Virus record (IMG/VR): IMGVR_UViG_3300021962_000059
Source: a virus
Direction: 5' to 3' (one strand)
DNA length: 64,000 bases
The notes under the pieces were generated by a model that saw nothing but the letters and a program-made list of their open reading frames with translations, made no database searches and had not been told where the DNA came from. Shown here piece by piece: positions 12,572 through 22,168 of this stretch (its first letter is position 1; each line of letters starts with the position of its first letter). A program made the translations under genes and the position numbers.

Positions 12572-13010
12572 ATTGTAGATAGATTGTAGATAGGGTGATC
12601 GACAACCGAAACCGTTACCCCGTAAAGGTTCTAGACTTTGTAGATAATGTCAATGCACTATAGAGGAAAAAAGAAGAAAGATAGAACAATAAACCAGACT
12701 GGACAATAAAAAACCGCAAGAGATAAACAAAGTCAACAGTAAAGCTGTTAGTTTGTATCTCGATTGTAGATAAGGTTATCTACAATCGAAAACCTTACAG
12801 GGTATAGGTTTCGAGGTTTGTTTATCTTGTCGATACTCTATACAGGGAAGAGAAAAGATAGAGAGAGATAAACGAACTGGACAATAAGAAAAGGATAAAA
12901 AATCTTGGCACGGGAAAATAGATCAACAATATAAACAAAGTCTAGAATCTATATATATCAATGCTTTTCAATGTTGATCACCTTATCTACAATCTATTTA
13001 CAAACCAACA
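12572..13010. repeat. Left iteron array (about two ~190 bp units, TTGTAGATA/TATCTACAA 9-mers, AT-rich TATATATA block)
   Basis: Units starting at 12572 and 12762 align at roughly 70 percent by eye. A 12 bp-arm palindrome GATTGTAGATAA-GG-TTATCTACAATC lies at 12762-12787. The array is an inverted copy of 23822-24445. Confidence 0.8.
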
Positions 13011-13019
13011 AACTATAAA

Positions 13020-13041
13020 CCCCCTATGAGTCCATAGGGGG
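13020..13041. terminator. Bidirectional hairpin terminator CCCCCTATG-N4-CATAGGGGG
   Basis: 9 bp GC-rich stem flanked by AAA on one side and TTTAT on the other. It lies 22 bp past the stop of 13063..13767. Confidence 0.6.
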
Positions 13042-13062
13042 TTTATATGGGTTTAGGTATTT

Positions 13063-13767: not shown

Positions 13768-13850
13768 ATTGACTCCTTATTAGTCTTATTGGTTAGTCCC
13801 TCGCGTCAACGAGGGCATATTAGTATTGTACCACTTTAAATAATTAATTA

Positions 13851-13882
13851 TTCCCCAATACAGAATTTTCTGTATTGGGGAA
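13851..13882. promoter_or_regulatory. Operator palindrome TTCCCCAATACAGAA-TT-TTCTGTATTGGGGAA
   Basis: Perfect 15 bp arms. It lies just upstream of the extended -10 TGGTACAAT of gene A. The core AATACAGAAnnTTCTGTATT recurs at 62623-62642. Confidence 0.6.
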
Positions 13883-14009
13883 TCTGGACACAGAAAAAAC
13901 GAGAATCAGGAAACCTATTAACAAAGATAACAAACTAATAAAACCTATATATATCAATACTTTTCACTGTCAATACCCTTGCTAACAATCTGGTAACAAT
14001 ATTAACTAA

Positions 14010-14037
14010 AAACCCGTCAATCAGTTGACGGGTTTTT
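14010..14037. terminator. Bidirectional terminator ACCCGTCAA-N4-TTGACGGGT
   Basis: 9 bp stem flanked by an A5 run and a T5 run. It lies directly 3' of 14040..14285. Confidence 0.65.
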
Positions 14038-14039
14038 AG

Positions 14040-14285
14040 TTAATTAAATTTTTCGTATTCTCTTAATATTATTTGGGTTGCCTCCTCGATTTGTTTTCCT
14101 TTTGATAGTAAGTTGAGAATTTTAGCTAGAACTTGCCTGACTCGTTCTTTACCTATTCCTAATTCTGCTGTAGTTGATGCCACTTTAAAGCGATAGTTCC
14201 GATGCCGGGAAGTGACAGGCACTGGGTCAAGATTGTTGTTTTTAGCCCACACCAGATAGATGTAAGCTTGTCTAGGAGTAATCAA
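14040..14285 (-). CDS. Small HTH protein resembling sigma-70 region 4 (81 aa)
   Basis: TAELGIGKERVRQVLAKILNLL matches the region 4.2 HTH pattern. Confidence 0.45.
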   Translation of the reverse strand: MITPRQAYIYLVWAKNNNLDPVPVTSRHRNYRFKVASTTAELGIGKERVRQVLAKILNLLSKGKQIEEATQIILREYEKFN

Positions 14286-14306: not shown

Positions 14307-14684
14307 TTAGGCATAAAAAACACCATCAGGATCATTTTCGTCAACTACTTCGCCGTCCTCGTTGTACAGTAATTTTACTTTTTCTGGCTTAAAATAAGCA
14401 ATTTTGAATTGTTCCGAAAGTATCTTGATTAAATCTTTAACTTCAGACTGTATCCCGTATTTAAAGCCAAAATAACCACCTTTAAATTCTTCGCCAATTT
14501 TCTTAATAGAAAAATAGCCTTCGCTGCCATTAAAGTAAACACGAATCTCGTCAGGTTTTTTGTCCCAAACACTAGCTTTTACAAAGCAACAAGCTTGCGA
14601 ATGCCACTCCGATCCTTTTGATTGGTTCCAGAGAGTTTGGAGTTTTTGTGCAAACTCTAGTCCTGAAATTAACTTTGCATCCAT
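14307..14684 (-). CDS. Hypothetical protein (125 aa)
   Basis: Intact ORF with an AAACAAAACAC-type leader and an AAGGA SD. Confidence 0.5.
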   Translation of the reverse strand: MDAKLISGLEFAQKLQTLWNQSKGSEWHSQACCFVKASVWDKKPDEIRVYFNGSEGYFSIKKIGEEFKGGYFGFKYGIQSEVKDLIKILSEQFKIAYFKPEKVKLLYNEDGEVVDENDPDGVFYA

Positions 14685-14757
14685 TTGATTTGTCCTTTTG
14701 TGTGTTTTGTTTATATTTTTATAGTAGATCGATTTTCTTGATAGGTGTTGGTCAAGT

Positions 14758-14787
14758 GTGACAGTTTATCAAGTGACACTGCGGGTA
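14758..14787. repeat. 30 bp direct repeat, copy 1 (GTGACAGTTTATCAAGTGACACTGCGGGTA)
   Basis: 27 of 30 positions match 15075-15104. The two copies bracket the structured region upstream of terS. Confidence 0.8.
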
Positions 14788-14804
14788 TCATTGAAAATAC
14801 TTTA

Positions 14805-15022
14805 AAACTATAATCCCAATGCTTTATTAGCATTGGGATTATAGAGAACCACTAGACCAAGTGCGTGCATTAGCTATCTACTATTTCAAGATAGTTACTG
14901 GACTTACACCAGCAAGCTTAGAACGACTTGTTAACCAGTCTCACTAGCCGACTACTATTTCAAATCGGTTGCTGATCTACCCAGTAGCTTATGGAGTCTC
15001 TAATTAATGGATGCACTCGGTT
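14805..15022 (-). ncRNA. Candidate structured ncRNA (~220 nt) antisense-upstream of terS
   Basis: A 16-position closing helix (15022-15007 with 14880-14865) has 14 pairs, including one G.U that exists only on the minus strand. Two hairpins share the loop UUGAAAUAGUAG. The 3' end is a 16 bp hairpin followed by UUUUAAAGUAUUUUC. The promoter is weak or unclear. Confidence 0.4.
14808..14844 (-). terminator. Perfect 16 bp hairpin CTATAATCCCAATGCT-TTATT-AGCATTGGGATTATAG
   Basis: A U-run follows it only on the minus strand. Confidence 0.55.
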
Positions 15023-15074
15023 TACTGTCCATATTCTAAATATATCATGATAATTTTCAGATAGTTGGCGAAGA

Positions 15075-15104
15075 GTGACGGTTTATCAAGTGTCACTGCG
15101 TGTA
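15075..15104. repeat. 30 bp direct repeat, copy 2 (GTGACGGTTTATCAAGTGTCACTGCGTGTA)
   Basis: Second copy of 14758-14787. Contains the inverted pair GTGAC-N12-GTCAC. Candidate pac or TerS-binding site. Confidence 0.8.
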
Positions 15105-15339
15105 CTTTTGTACTGGACTGATTGAATATCCGATTTATTACTGATTTTCAGTATATTTGGTTGTTTTACGTTCGTTCTCGTTGATTATTGATACTGAGAA
15201 TATTGTTAAGCATTTTTAACTATCATAAAGGTTTTTTCCTTTAGAACAATTTAATTTTGTCGGTTTATTTTTTGGTTGCACGGCACAAAAGCTGTCATTT
15301 TGGCATAATATTGATTAATCGAGATTATATCTTAATTTA

Positions 15340-16029
15340 ATGCCAAGACGAAAAAAAGCATCACCAAATAACTCAACCTCGACACCTAAAAGTCCTGTGT
15401 CAGGCAAAGTTAGTCGGTTTGATAATCTAATACCAAACTCACCTATCGAGTTTGGTCACTATCCTATCTGGGAAAGACAGCCTTGCGAAATGTCTCAATG
15501 GTTTGAAAAATTTCAAGCTTTTTACATTCATCTTCCTGCGGGGTACAGAACATTAAATCGTGCTTTCAATGATTGCGCTACGTCGGCAGGCGAGGAGATT
15601 CCAAAGACTGAAAGTAAGCGCAATATTACCGCACCAGAACAATGGCAATTAGCTTATAAAATGTATCGATGGGAGGATCGAGCTAAGGCGTATTGGCTTA
15701 AAAAGATACAAGATCAAGAGGCTTATAGAAATGAAATCCTAAACCAAATAATAGATAAAAGCATAAAGAATGCTTTTAAAACACTCGAAAAAAGCGAGGA
15801 GATAAACAATCGTTCACTGGACGATCCTAACGGCAATTGGAGTCATAAAGACGCTGTAATTATGACTAAAGCTGTCACTGAAATAGTAGAAAAAGCATTA
15901 GGGCTTGACACTGTAGAATATGCTATTAGTATTTTACAAAAAAATGGGTTAAAAGCAATTGATCCTGACGGGAACTTAATAGGACAGCCAACAGATAAGG
16001 GTAATTCAGAAGATGAAACTATCTTATAA
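15340..16029 (+). CDS. terS: Terminase small subunit
   Basis: Basic N-terminus. The segment FEKFQAFYIHLPAGYRTLNRAF...WQLAYKMYRWEDRAKAYW resembles a common TerS HTH/W-R-A motif. It overlaps terL by 17 nt. Confidence 0.6.
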   Translation: MPRRKKASPNNSTSTPKSPVSGKVSRFDNLIPNSPIEFGHYPIWERQPCEMSQWFEKFQAFYIHLPAGYRTLNRAFNDCATSAGEEIPKTESKRNITAPEQWQLAYKMYRWEDRAKAYWLKKIQDQEAYRNEILNQIIDKSIKNAFKTLEKSEEINNRSLDDPNGNWSHKDAVIMTKAVTEIVEKALGLDTVEYAISILQKNGLKAIDPDGNLIGQPTDKGNSEDETIL

Positions 16030-18889
16030 AAATCTCTCAAAGATAAAAACAGCAACCGAAAAATATCGACTTGTTAACACCAAAGAAGAAATTGTTTTTC
16101 CTCAATTACAAGAGGGAAAACAAGCTTTATTTGGAACAATTGATGCTGATGTAATCTTCTATGGCGGAGGCGCAGGAAGTGGAAAAGCAGGACGTGCATC
16201 CAAGACAGGAAAAGCGATTCGAGATAAAATGCTTTCTATGGCGGATGCGCTTTTAGGGAAAAAACTATTATCATATAATAGTAGTTTTAATGAATCGCAA
16301 ATGAAAGATTCAAAGGTCTTGGGATGGAGTGGTCAATGGATTGACTTCTCTGATCTTAAAGTCGGGGATAAGATTATGAATCCTGATGGCCAGTATCAAG
16401 AAATCATCCAAATTCATGAACAGGGATTCAAACAATTTTATCGGGTTTCTTTTGAAGACGGTACAAGTACAGAATGCTGTGGTGATCATTTATGGTCTTT
16501 TTGGGAATCTCGCCGTAATAGCCGCAGGAAGTCTAGTAATGGGATTAATCGAATTGAGTCGAATCTGACACCTCGAGGATGGAATACTAATTACATTACA
16601 AGAGCAAGGGTTAAGGATACTAATTGGTTGATTACTGAAATTAGTAAAGGAAGACGATTTATTATTCCAATTAACGCGCCATTGCAATTTACGGCACTCA
16701 ACAGGTCTGATACTGGCAGAGCCTATTTTTATGGTTGTTTAATAGGTGATGGTTCTTATTGTAGTGATTCAATTGTCGTAACAACTTCTGATAAGTTTAT
16801 TGCTGATAAACTTGTTGATATTTTAGGGAAAGAAGCTACTGTTAAAACACGAACACCAATAAAAGATGACCGCTTAGAAGTTTTATCCGTCAATGCGACA
16901 AAAGTTCAATGGGTTAAATCTTGGATAAGCAACAATGAATATAAAGGAAAAAGAGCGTGGGAAAAAGTATTTCCCGACGGCTATTTATCAGCATCTCTTG
17001 ATTTTCGTTATGCGTTTGCTCAAGGTCTTTTTGATACAGATGGAACTGTTGGAGATAAAAAAAGAGAAGTCTCCTATTGCACAACCAGTAAAGATTTGGC
17101 TATTCAGGTAGCTTCTTTGGTTCGTTCTTTGGGTTATATGGCTAAGATTACGGAAAGACAACCAAAATATAGATACAAAGGGGAACATTTAGATGGTCGT
17201 ACGGCTTACGTTGTGGCTGTTGAGGGAAATCATCTTGAATTACTTTTTAGTTTGCCGCGTAAAGTTAAACGAGCGAAAATACTTGGACAATTCAATGGAG
17301 GATCAAGTTGGCCGGGTAAAAGAATTGTTTCTATTGAACCAACTGAAATTGATTACGCTCGTTGTATTACTGTTAGTAATCCAAATCATCTTTATTTAAC
17401 AGACGATTATATAGTTACGCATAATAGCTTCGCATTATTAGCCGATTTTGCCCGTCAAGAATTTGTCAGCAATCCTGACTATCGGGCTGTTATTTTTCGC
17501 CGGACTTACCCTGAATTTACTCAAGCGGGCGGTTTAATAGATGAAAGCCAAAAAATCTATCAGGCAATAAAAGGCAATTTTATCGAAAAACCTCCGGGGT
17601 GGCGATTTCCATCTGGATCAAAAATAGCTTTTAGGCATTTACAATACGAAAAAACTGTCTATGTTTATCAAGGGGGGCAAATTGCAAAAATAGGTTTTGA
17701 TGAATTGACTCACTTTACAGAAGAGCAGTTTTTCTATCTTCTCTCTAGAAACCGATCTGTATCAGGGATTAAACCAGCAGTTAGAGCAACTTGTAACCCT
17801 GACGCTGACTCTTGGGTAGCTAGTTTTATCTCTTGGTGGATCGACCCTAAAACTGGGTATGCTATCGAGGAAAGAGCGGGAATAGTTAAATATTTTATTA
17901 GGCAAGGGGGCGCGGTTCATTGGGCTGACAGTAAACAAGAATTAATTGATAAGTTTAGTCTTAAAGATGAACTTTTTGATATTATCCCTGATGATAAAAA
18001 AGAAAAGTTTTTATCAGATACAGATGTAAATATTACACCAGATAAACTGATCAAAAGTTTTACTTTTATTCCTGCTACAATCTTTGATAATCCAGCTTTA
18101 ATTAGAGTTAACCCTACCTATTTGGCTAACCTTTACGCTTTACATCCTATTGAGCGGGAAAGACTTCTCAGGGGTAATTGGAAGATTAAATATGAATCTG
18201 GCACTGTATTTGATCGGACTTGGTTTGAGATACTCGATAAAGTACCCGATGATTGGAGACTAATAGGTAAGGTGAGGTTTTGGGATTTAGCGGCAACTGC
18301 TAAAGAGAATGCTGAAAACTATCACTGTTATACCAGTGGCACTCTTGTTTATAAGTATCAAAGAATTAAAAATACACTGCCAGATTCAACTGAGATTAAA
18401 GAATTTGCTTATGTGATTGCTGATAATATCTGTGAGCAGAAAAAGGTCGGGGAAGTGGAGTTAATGCTCAAAAATACTGCTGAATTAGATGGTAGAACCG
18501 TAGCCGTAAGATGGGAACAGGAAGGGGGATCGAGCGGTAAATTTGTTGAAAATACGATTACTAATGTAATTAGGGAAAACCACCCGAACCATGATGTTAG
18601 AGCTATCGCACCTCAAGGGGATAAACTCACTAGGGCTTTACCCGTAGCAACGGCGGCTAGTAGAGGACAAGTCTTTATCTTGAGAGATGGGATATGGAAT
18701 ACTCGATTTTTAAATGCTTGTCAGGGTTTTGATGGCAGTAAAAAAACACCCCCGACTAACGATATTGTGGATAGCTTATCAGGGGCTTTCTATTCTCTTG
18801 AAAATGAGTTTCAGGGACATGAGGAGGTTATTAGTGCGATTGTTACTAATATTCCCATTAATCGGTTTAGGGGCGGTTTTAGTCGCTAG
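16013..18889 (+). CDS. terL: Terminase large subunit, interrupted by an intein in the Walker A P-loop
   Basis: The exteins rejoin as YGGGAGSGK|SFALLADF (Walker A). Also present: Walker B IGFDELTHF, RATCNPD, and a C-terminal nuclease region. The mature protein would be about 545 aa. Confidence 0.85.
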   Translation: MKLSYKNLSKIKTATEKYRLVNTKEEIVFPQLQEGKQALFGTIDADVIFYGGGAGSGKAGRASKTGKAIRDKMLSMADALLGKKLLSYNSSFNESQMKDSKVLGWSGQWIDFSDLKVGDKIMNPDGQYQEIIQIHEQGFKQFYRVSFEDGTSTECCGDHLWSFWESRRNSRRKSSNGINRIESNLTPRGWNTNYITRARVKDTNWLITEISKGRRFIIPINAPLQFTALNRSDTGRAYFYGCLIGDGSYCSDSIVVTTSDKFIADKLVDILGKEATVKTRTPIKDDRLEVLSVNATKVQWVKSWISNNEYKGKRAWEKVFPDGYLSASLDFRYAFAQGLFDTDGTVGDKKREVSYCTTSKDLAIQVASLVRSLGYMAKITERQPKYRYKGEHLDGRTAYVVAVEGNHLELLFSLPRKVKRAKILGQFNGGSSWPGKRIVSIEPTEIDYARCITVSNPNHLYLTDDYIVTHNSFALLADFARQEFVSNPDYRAVIFRRTYPEFTQAGGLIDESQKIYQAIKGNFIEKPPGWRFPSGSKIAFRHLQYEKTVYVYQGGQIAKIGFDELTHFTEEQFFYLLSRNRSVSGIKPAVRATCNPDADSWVASFISWWIDPKTGYAIEERAGIVKYFIRQGGAVHWADSKQELIDKFSLKDELFDIIPDDKKEKFLSDTDVNITPDKLIKSFTFIPATIFDNPALIRVNPTYLANLYALHPIERERLLRGNWKIKYESGTVFDRTWFEILDKVPDDWRLIGKVRFWDLAATAKENAENYHCYTSGTLVYKYQRIKNTLPDSTEIKEFAYVIADNICEQKKVGEVELMLKNTAELDGRTVAVRWEQEGGSSGKFVENTITNVIRENHPNHDVRAIAPQGDKLTRALPVATAASRGQVFILRDGIWNTRFLNACQGFDGSKKTPPTNDIVDSLSGAFYSLENEFQGHEEVISAIVTNIPINRFRGGFSR
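16187..17425 (+). mobile_element. Intein (413 aa) with a double-motif LAGLIDADG homing endonuclease
   Basis: Starts at Ala59, right after the GSGK lysine, and ends ...IVTHN|S. Block B reads GDHLW. LAGLIDADG motifs YGCLIGDGSY and AQGLFDTDGTV. Block F reads RCITV. Confidence 0.8.
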
Positions 18890-22091: not shown

Positions 22092-22164
22092 GCGGGGTGA
22101 GTGAAATGGTTTCCACATAGGCCTCATAAGCCTAAAACACTAAGTTCGACTCCTAGACCCCACA
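22092..22164 (+). tRNA. Degenerate tRNA-like gene, anticodon CAU (Met or Ile2 type)
   Basis: The cloverleaf can be drawn: acceptor GCGGGGT/ACCCCAC (C2-A71 mismatch), a D arm with GG, anticodon stem TAGGC/GCCTA with loop CTCATAA, and T arm CTAAG-TTCGACT-CCTAG (one mismatch). G replaces U at position 8, and no CCA is encoded. Confidence 0.4.
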
Positions 22165-22168
22165 CTAA

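Follow-up and report, generated by a model that had tools for sequence, protein, structure and literature searches.

Stand-alone small RNAs with a promoter of their own and an intrinsic terminator are known from several phages, such as the OOP RNA of lambda, the c4 RNA of P1 and the CI RNA of P4. Modular arrangements are known as well: mobile regulatory cassettes of the PeSL type were reportedly described in T4-type phages by Arbiol et al. in 2010, while pneumococcal BOX elements are modular repeats built as BOX A-Bn-C. RNA anti-CRISPRs are said to have been reported by Camara-Wilpert et al. in 2023, and Aca2 was reportedly recognized as an RNA-binding regulator by Birkholz et al. in 2024. To our knowledge, few structured non-coding RNAs (ncRNAs) have been described in cyanophages, and for uncultured freshwater phages there are almost none. 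The element that is the subject of this work is found in a virus record of 64,000 nucleotides (IMGVR_UViG_3300021962_000059, referred to at its full length as the window), within the 655-bp non-coding gap (14685-15339) between a minus-strand open reading frame (ORF) of 125 amino acids and the plus-strand gene of a putative small terminase (TerS).

We lean towards reading positions 14804-15104 as an optional, single-copy cassette for a structured ncRNA that would be transcribed from the minus strand, away from the terminase genes. That the RNA comes from the minus strand, whether as a free small RNA (sRNA) or as the leader of a downstream gene, is held with considerably more confidence. An initial annotation of the window had proposed a discrete minus-strand RNA of ~220 nt with its own terminator; this is still the best reading, to which a conserved predicted promoter can now be added, and it is drawn from sequence throughout.

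Distribution of the element among related phages

Approximately 30 related contigs (designated by L and G numbers) were gathered from IMG/VR and from metagenomes, using as queries TerS, the doubled loop motif of the element and a small helix-turn-helix (HTH) protein encoded nearby; five of them are records of 82-90 kb with an estimated completeness of 91-100%. A covariance model built from 11 distinct copies, which matches the core in the window with 194.6 bits on the minus strand, was scanned on the 26 loci that carry the HTH gene. The conserved unit consists of a core of 217-220 nt and an AT-rich block (14847-15069 in the window); the core is 87-93% identical across about 20 contigs, and the flanks differ on both sides. 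The element was recognized in 19 of the 26 loci, in all 19 of which it lies upstream of the HTH gene and in the same orientation, and it is present in a single copy in four genomes that are 91-100% complete.

The core is lacking in G005 and G007, genomes of 100% and 92% completeness with a TerS that shares 92-93% identity with that of the window, and in five other loci; at such empty sites one copy of a direct repeat joins the same left and right flanks. Phages with a TerS of only 53% identity carry it at ~90% identity; there it is located upstream of terS by 1.9-3.4 kb and behind a gene for a DNA methyltransferase, the distance from terS over all loci being 0.3-3.4 kb. As the core is missing from genomes with a closely similar TerS and does not track TerS, an essential cis function such as that of a packaging site (pac) or an origin is excluded for it, and its presence beside so divergent a TerS argues against co-evolution of the two. 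As judged from these comparisons, the element is an optional, single-copy, gene-like cassette, i.e., accessory. In the distant relative L014/G006, no gap and no match to the element were found.

The range of the family seems narrow. All 26 relatives derived through the HTH protein are at least 86% identical, a metagenome scan for more divergent homologues that could inform covariation added one new variant only, and a scan of 241 million metagenome records for the loop motif found copies of the element in phage only. The comparison with Rfam that had been suggested for this region matched no family: at the gathering thresholds of Rfam 15 the sole match in the window is a tRNA (22092-22164), and at E<=10 positions 14600-15400 yield matches of 11-18 bits only, far below those thresholds. 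ARAGORN likewise reports no tRNA or tmRNA in the region, the only one in the window being tRNA-Met at 22092-22165. Searches of INPHARED with the DNA, and by tblastn with TerS and a neighbouring protein of 234 aa, gave no match to a cultured phage, and the nearest cultured TerL, from Rhizobium phages, is ~42% identical. The element is, on this evidence, a new and narrowly distributed candidate RNA family, whose general kind (a phage structured sRNA or leader) is known.

Predicted fold of the core

The predicted structure, on which the remainder of the argument leans, comprises the following parts.

14850-15032, minus strand: structured core of the candidate ncRNA, from RNAalifold, pair counts and the covariance model
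15027-15013 with 14864-14850, minus strand: closing helix P1, 15 positions of which 13 pair in the window, including G15018.U14859
15009-15000 with 14938-14929, minus strand: helix P2 of the consensus fold, enclosing module A
14986-14981 with 14975-14970, minus strand: hairpin HaA of module A, consensus fold
14968-14963 with 14953-14948, minus strand: hairpin HbA of module A, consensus fold
14954-14962, minus strand: loop of HbA, UGAAAUAGU, 9 nt, invariant in all copies
14927-14922 with 14871-14865, minus strand: helix P3 of the consensus fold, enclosing module B
14915-14909 with 14901-14895, minus strand: hairpin HaB of module B, consensus fold
14894-14889 with 14879-14874, minus strand: hairpin HbB of module B, consensus fold
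14880-14888, minus strand: loop of HbB, 9 nt, identical to that of HbA

The impression of a region rich in secondary structure is borne out, positions 14790-15060 folding better than shuffled sequences on the minus (z -4.7) and on the plus strand (z -6.25); for the core alone the values are -2.6 and -3.5, respectively. The core holds no ORF in the ORF list of the window, and it is bounded by an inverted repeat of 18-20 bp that is perfect in some relatives. The minus-strand consensus fold obtained with RNAalifold has 62 pairs, -54.6 kcal/mol and a structure conservation index (SCI) of 0.96. In this fold, P1 would enclose modules duplicated in tandem, of which there are two, or three in some relatives; each is an adjacent pair of hairpins in the order AAGCU, hairpin Ha, 0-1 nt, hairpin Hb and CUGR, where Hb would always display the invariant 9-nt UGAAAUAGU loop on a 6-bp stem. 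The third module, in L012, L017, L020 and L022, stems from a duplication of 90 nt, which begins five bases ahead of the base of P2 and takes in the whole of that domain.

Several helices named in the initial annotation can be recognized here in altered form. Its closing helix of 16 positions and 14 pairs (15022-15007 with 14880-14865) exists, but is really 15027-15013 with 14850-14864, paired at 13 of 15 positions; the two halves of its internal helix UACUGG/CCAGUA are present as sequences, but in the consensus each belongs to a local hairpin of its own, one per repeated module. The two hairpins with an identical 12-mer in their loops do stand, with the first copy at 14878-14889, one base from where it had been placed, and the second at 14952-14963. 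This 12-mer, CTACTATTTCAA, is common to the 33-nt stretches 14868-14900 and 14942-14974, where it sits inside hairpins with different stems (CTATCT/AGATAG versus CCGA/TCGG in the window).

Across the alignment, 98.8% of the cells assigned to pairs are indeed paired, and 11 pairs carry one-sided, wobble-compatible changes. The HbB stem is CUAUCU/AGAUAG in the window and CCGAUU/AGUCGG in relatives, so that three adjacent pairs (CG>UA, GC>AU and AU>UA; alignment pairs 139/157, 140/156 and 141/155) are changed on both sides while the loop is unchanged. The observed covariation score was reached by 1 of 500 shuffles, and slid controls drop to 22-43% paired. Invariant loops on a covarying stem are the pattern to be expected of a hairpin read in single-stranded form, and not of a duplex site for a dimeric protein.

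Predicted promoter modules and terminator

The core is preceded and followed, on the minus strand, by the following elements.

15064-15104, minus strand: direct repeat copy 2, upstream half of the leftward promoter cassette that heads the structured RNA
15033-15063, minus strand: AT-rich promoter block, nearly invariant in all copies
14804-14844, minus strand: perfect hairpin of 16 bp (14844-14829 with 14823-14808) and UUUU behind it (14807-14804), putative intrinsic terminator of the ncRNA
14747-14787, minus strand: direct repeat copy 1, forming the upstream half of the cassette with the predicted promoter of the 125-aa gene
14685-14746, minus strand: rest of that cassette and leader of the 125-aa gene, aligned with L001, L019 and early cassettes

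Two direct repeats of 30 bp (at 14758 and 15075) had been described as flanking the element. The repeats are real and in fact extend over 41 nt, with 85% identity and a 26-nt core that occurs at two places only in the 64-kb window (0 expected by chance), but they are not the ends of an element. On the minus strand each is the start of a module of ~100 nt, consisting of a palindrome, a stretch that begins CTTCGCCAAC, a -10 hexamer of the general form TAYATT after the palindrome, and a leader. Copy 2 contains the quasi-palindrome AGTGACG-N10-TGTCACT (15074-15097), while the palindrome of copy 1 (14757-14780) has one mutated arm; the consensus in relatives is TGTGACA-N10-TGTCACA. Downstream of copy 1, the cassette of the 125-aa gene continues with the -10 TACTAT (14726-14721), a AAACAAAACACAC leader and AAGGA ahead of the ATG at 14684. 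This -10 is in register with the TATATT and TACATT of L001 and L019 and with the TATATT at 15044-15039 before the core, the last of these hexamers lining up with the -10 of three leftward gene cassettes and with the TACATT of the early cassettes. In L019, -10 and leader read TACATTAGAAATGTAAGCAAAACAC, exactly as in the early cassettes (TTGACT-17-TACATT) located at 7.5-12.5 kb of the window, and leftward gene cassettes and early cassettes of the same genome have a common 25-nt identity over -10 and leader. The promoter-cassette architecture around the element is, to judge by these alignments, already present elsewhere in the same genome.

Copy 1 appears to head the 125-aa gene and copy 2 the structured core, with a predicted start near 15032, five bases before P1. 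Since each copy would head a transcription unit of its own, the direct repeats are best described as duplicated promoter/operator modules and not as element ends. The module formed by copy 2, with its palindromic operator-like site and a TG-n-TATATT sequence, would start transcription at ~15032, and that formed by copy 1 would restart it so that the 125-aa gene and, with it, the small HTH gene are read. The promoter block carries an extended -10, TG (15047-15046) plus TATATT (15044-15039), that is invariant in all relatives. Also within the block are TAGAAT (15038-15033), as an alternative and overlapping -10, and CTGAAA (15060-15055), weakly resembling a -35; a consensus promoter scan matched CTGAAA-16-TAGAAT. 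The promoter had earlier been considered unconvincing, with TAGAAT near 15030 as its best -10; that hexamer is there, but the conserved TG-n-TATATT (15047-15039) had been missed. Together these features predict a minus-strand promoter of the sigma-70 type, by virtue of the conserved extended -10 and with a weak -35.

At the other end, the perfect 16-bp hairpin at 14808-14844, with a T-run on the minus strand only, is confirmed: it has a 5-nt loop and is followed by UUUUAAAGUAUUUUC, as predicted for an intrinsic terminator, although with 4 T among the first 8 bases it fell one T short of what a simple terminator scan requires. A transcript ending at the U-run (14844-14804) would have a length of ~190-230 nt. 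A hairpin follows the core in every context, the 16-bp form with minus-only UUUU in the window and L003, and a different 13-bp hairpin with a weaker U-tract in other relatives. Perfect hairpins of the same class, of 15-20 bp, are found after or between other minus-strand genes of the window (14001-14044, 13850-13883 and 13014-13047), that at 13850-13883 being followed by an extended -10, TGGTACAAT; a grammar of hairpin and then promoter seems to recur in this minus-strand operon.

Rearrangement at the repeats

Copies of the palindrome number 1-4 per genome and lie nearly always in this region, one of them at a fixed distance of 262-266 nt before terS of type 1. Among relatives its 10-nt spacer flips in place, adjoining genes are inverted and cassettes come and go, so the palindrome marks recombination points. 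Like PeSL-like cassettes, the 41-nt repeats combine a promoter (here a predicted one) with a dyad at gene borders where rearrangements take place. Recombination at the duplicated promoter/operator modules could produce the gain, loss and rearrangement of cassettes seen among close relatives.

Flips of this kind are seen at two sites between flanks that are otherwise identical: the palindrome spacer reads either GTTTATCAAG or CTTGATAAAC (L019, position 4238, versus L028), and the loop of a 13-bp hairpin left of the core (L019, L025) reads either CAGTAAA or TTTACTG. In-place flips of loops and spacers are the signature of template-switch inversion at inverted repeats. A second family of palindromes, CGTGCCAGTGCCTAAAGTGGCACA (GTGCCA...TGGCAC), occurs in the same variable region (L013 1208, L007 1071, L025 10779) and may represent a variant operator.

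Weighing the readings of the locus

The minus strand is favoured because promoter, terminator hairpin and gene context agree. The element keeps its orientation relative to the HTH gene although other genes of the region are inverted, and the left neighbour of the core is a minus-strand gene in every locus, as is the right neighbour in about 8 contigs. Within P1, one position pairs on the minus strand only and one on the plus strand only, and at pair 14/173 the three states of a series A-U, G.U and G-C are all paired on the minus strand only. The reading as a discrete RNA fits best in the window, L003 and L019-type loci, where a strong hairpin stands behind the core and a complete second promoter cassette comes next.

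A number of observations weigh against a free minus-strand RNA. The -35 of the core promoter is poor. Diversity is low, with 12 distinct two-module and 3 distinct three-module variants at ~90% identity, and all three double-sided changes fall in one hairpin (HbB) of one sequence, that of the window, where they could have arisen from a single templated quasi-palindrome event. The plus strand folds about as well (the z of -6.25 against -4.7 given above), a small hairpin with a T-run lies at its 3' side, and one position of P1 forms a G.U pair on that strand only. The G.U pairs themselves carry no strand signal: the 26 pairs common to the folds of both strands contain 3 versus 2 strand-specific wobbles, and wobbles make up 13-14% within each strand's own predicted fold. 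The initial argument for the minus strand from a G.U pair thus fails, and a strand call from counts of G.U versus A.C was rejected as symmetric once the bias of prediction is removed. For the complement of the loop, neither the window nor any locus offers a conserved site, and no target or partner was found there. Finally, in L013-type loci, which lack a second promoter, a perfect hairpin stands 14 nt ahead of the start codon of the HTH gene, an arrangement that fits a leader better.

That the RNA is a cis-acting 5' leader of the leftward operon ending in the HTH gene, as an operator for the HTH protein or another factor or as a nut/put-like control of read-through, is the most serious of the alternatives, even if we consider it unlikely. 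In 9-10 of the 19 contigs (those of L005 and L013 type) nothing but the hairpin, degenerate in many of them, and 64-72 nt lies between the core and the HTH start codon; since they have no second promoter and no room for one, the RNA would be a 5' leader in these loci, and the proposed scheme includes this situation, whereby in the roughly half of the relatives that have no second promoter the same RNA would be the leader of the HTH gene. The orientation fixed in 19/19 loci, and the position of two-hairpin modules between an early-type promoter, which they follow closely, and a terminator-like hairpin, speak for the same view. Against it, a strong hairpin and a full second promoter cassette intervene between core and next gene in the window, L003 and L019-type loci, and the adjoining gene differs by locus (125 aa, 128 aa, 153 aa or the HTH gene). 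In addition, 7 of 26 relatives have the HTH gene with its operon but lack the element, which implies that the gene does not depend on it.

It is rather improbable that the element acts as DNA, its dyads and repeats serving as duplex or extruded sites for protein binding or recombination at a module border. The strand-symmetric structure signal, the 18-20-bp inverted repeat around the core, the flipping loops and spacers of neighbouring palindromes (an indication of hairpin dynamics at the DNA level), the location in a rearrangement hot spot and the similar non-coding arrays at 12572-13010 would all suit such a role. However, a dimeric protein bound to duplex DNA would give the opposite of invariant loops on a covarying stem, P2 contains two adjacent G.U pairs that become A.C mismatches on the other strand, and a conserved predicted promoter abuts the core in fixed orientation; nor is the element multi-copy or its junctions located at the inverted repeat.

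Transcription of the same structured RNA from the plus strand, towards terS, is still a little less probable. Apart from the better z-scores and the plus-specific wobble in P1, it could draw on the small hairpin GCACUYGGUUUAGUGC, followed by UUAUAUUUU at the 3' side, and on a 12-mer in terS of the window and L003 whose complementarity to the plus-strand loops extends over 11 of 12 positions. This match is missing from all other element-bearing phages, no conserved promoter is seen, the left flank of the window and L003 is wholly different from that of the other copies, all surrounding genes are on the minus strand in about 8 contigs, and the plus-strand consensus fold is weaker (48 pairs, -48.9 kcal/mol, SCI 0.93). 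The near-match in terS was also considered as an antisense target of the minus-strand RNA and rejected, as it is found in the window and L003 only and has the same sense as the minus-strand loops.

The weakest alternative, a pac site recognized by TerS or a packaging RNA, is hardly credible despite a position that is always upstream of terS and one palindrome copy 262-266 nt before terS of type 1: the structured core is excluded as pac/TerS site by its absence beside a TerS of 92-93% identity (G005, G007) and its presence beside one of 53%, and a packaging RNA, also raised in the initial annotation, is unsupported, in that the UGAAAUAGU loops are identical and not mutually complementary, unlike those of the phi29 pRNA, and the element is dispensable. 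The palindrome alone could be a site of some kind, though it also heads leftward gene cassettes. If a pac site does lie near terS, a better candidate than the core is the 235-nt segment from repeat copy 2 to terS (15105-15339), which is 84-86% conserved in all type-1 relatives and holds a possible extended -10, TGGCATAAT (~15301-15309), and a dyad, TACTGAnnnTCAGTA (15140-15154).

Neighbouring genes

14040-14285, minus strand: small HTH-like protein of 81 aa, at least 86% conserved in all 26 relatives
14307-14684, minus strand: orphan ORF of 125 aa with its ATG at 14684, divergent from terS, variable cargo gene of the leftward operon
15340-16029, plus strand: putative small terminase of 229 aa, named from its position relative to TerL
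16013-18889, plus strand: TerL, matching Terminase_6N, with a LAGLIDADG intein

The 81-aa protein bears a weak resemblance to Sigma70_r4 in a Pfam search (E=0.036, below the cut-off). The product of the 125-aa ORF matched no Pfam or PHROG family, and its place is taken by other orphans in relatives; the gene adjoining the element is, depending on the locus, that of 125 aa, 128 aa, 153 aa or the HTH gene. The variable orphan cargo of the locus would comprise the RNA and ORFs of 125, 128, 153 and 163 aa. Searches of the neighbouring proteins against Pfam, PHROGs and PDB sequences gave sub-threshold hints only. The name of the putative TerS follows solely from its location directly before, and overlapping with, TerL.

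A 111-aa paralogue of the small HTH protein is encoded in the variable block before terS in L013 (1701-2036) and L005 (1714-2049); it has in common the N-terminal motif ITPRQA-IY and carries in addition a C-terminal CxxC...CxxC zinc ribbon (Pfam hints, E 0.004). In L035, an ORF of 413 aa located 750-1991 nt left of the element (plus strand, in the orientation of the element) has near its N-terminus YKFRIYPNTEQE, a motif typical of TnpB/OrfB; the ORF is confined to that contig, so that an insertion of the insertion sequence (IS) type beside the HTH gene is likely there. TerS of L003 (2050-2793) has 248 aa against 229 aa, because ~19 codons not far from the C-terminus are duplicated in tandem within the gene. 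The LAGLIDADG intein of TerL, of ~413 aa, is present in the window (16013-18889) and in L005 (3674-6550) and missing from L001 (3674-5311) and L013 (3674-5314), where TerL has 545-546 aa; it is thus polymorphic among close relatives.

Possible role and comparison with known systems

Through its two or three identical loops, the RNA could serve as a multivalent protein-binding platform or decoy; within the locus it would belong to the accessory cargo of a variable early operon, at the end of which stands a conserved small HTH regulator. A more specific proposal assigns it to anti-defence or host takeover: as a decoy among the accessory cargo of an acr-aca-like early operon, it would titrate with its loops an RNA-binding protein or nuclease of the host or of a rival phage. 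This is speculative and in our view improbable; were it true, module number would be adjustable by duplication. The element is well delimited, with a predicted promoter, a modular fold with invariant loops and a predicted terminator, and natural variants with or without it, or with two or three modules, exist in near-identical phages; it is for these reasons an unusually tractable candidate for the study of accessory RNA functions in phages. The picture of the region is also corrected, in that its conspicuous repeats appear to be promoter/operator modules and recombination points, and the core is not the packaging site.

Three known classes were set aside. In L066 (848-2881; the same as L072, MFGW01000002.1), a CRISPR array of 28 repeats in a metagenome-assembled genome (MAG) of Candidatus Fischerbacteria has a 37-nt repeat, GTTGAAATAGTAGTCCCAATGATGAGGGAACTGAAAG, which begins with GTTGAAATAGTAGTC, a 14-mer of the phage loop and stem. 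This mimicry was judged to be chance, because the array belongs to such an unrelated MAG, the phage is matched by 0 of its 27 spacers and the motif is found in no further array; in the metagenome collection, resemblance to a solitary repeat unit or RNA anti-CRISPR is limited to these 14 nt, shared with the repeat of one array. A type III toxin-antitoxin system (ToxIN-like) was rejected although the layout is superficially similar: the 81-aa and 125-aa proteins match no such family, and the repeat units measure 74-90 nt. The third class is that of miniature inverted-repeat transposable elements (MITEs) and other transposable repeats, to which, as to BOX elements, there is a likeness in the terminal inverted repeats (P1) that pair to close the element, in the varying number of internal modules and in the lack of an ORF; here, however, there is one copy per genome, the junctions between filled and empty sites lie at the 41-nt promoter repeats, and copies occur in phage only among the 241 million records.

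The comparison with phage systems brings out closer likenesses. Paired hairpins 0-1 nt apart, downstream of an early leftward promoter and before terminator-like hairpins, are reminiscent of HK022 put and lambda nut, as are copies with similar loops and different stems; in contrast to put/nut, there is no sequence similarity, a long closing helix surrounds the modules, relatives can do without the element and promoters follow the terminators. With the OOP, c4 and CI RNAs the element has in common that it is a short, ORF-free, hairpin-rich unit in an early or regulatory region whose loops are likely to be the functional surface, while it differs in having no sequence or Rfam relation to them and no complementary target found in the window or the related loci, in its two or three modules and in being optional among relatives. 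PeSL cassettes are matched by the repeated promoter-plus-dyad modules that head successive genes and mark points of gain, loss and inversion; the module here, however, has a 24-bp palindrome and no good -35, and one copy heads a non-coding structured RNA. Finally, although no Acr or Aca homology was found at the locus, the combination of an inverted-repeat promoter, variable orphan cargo and a conserved small HTH gene resembles that of acr-aca operons, in which RNA as cargo has a precedent.

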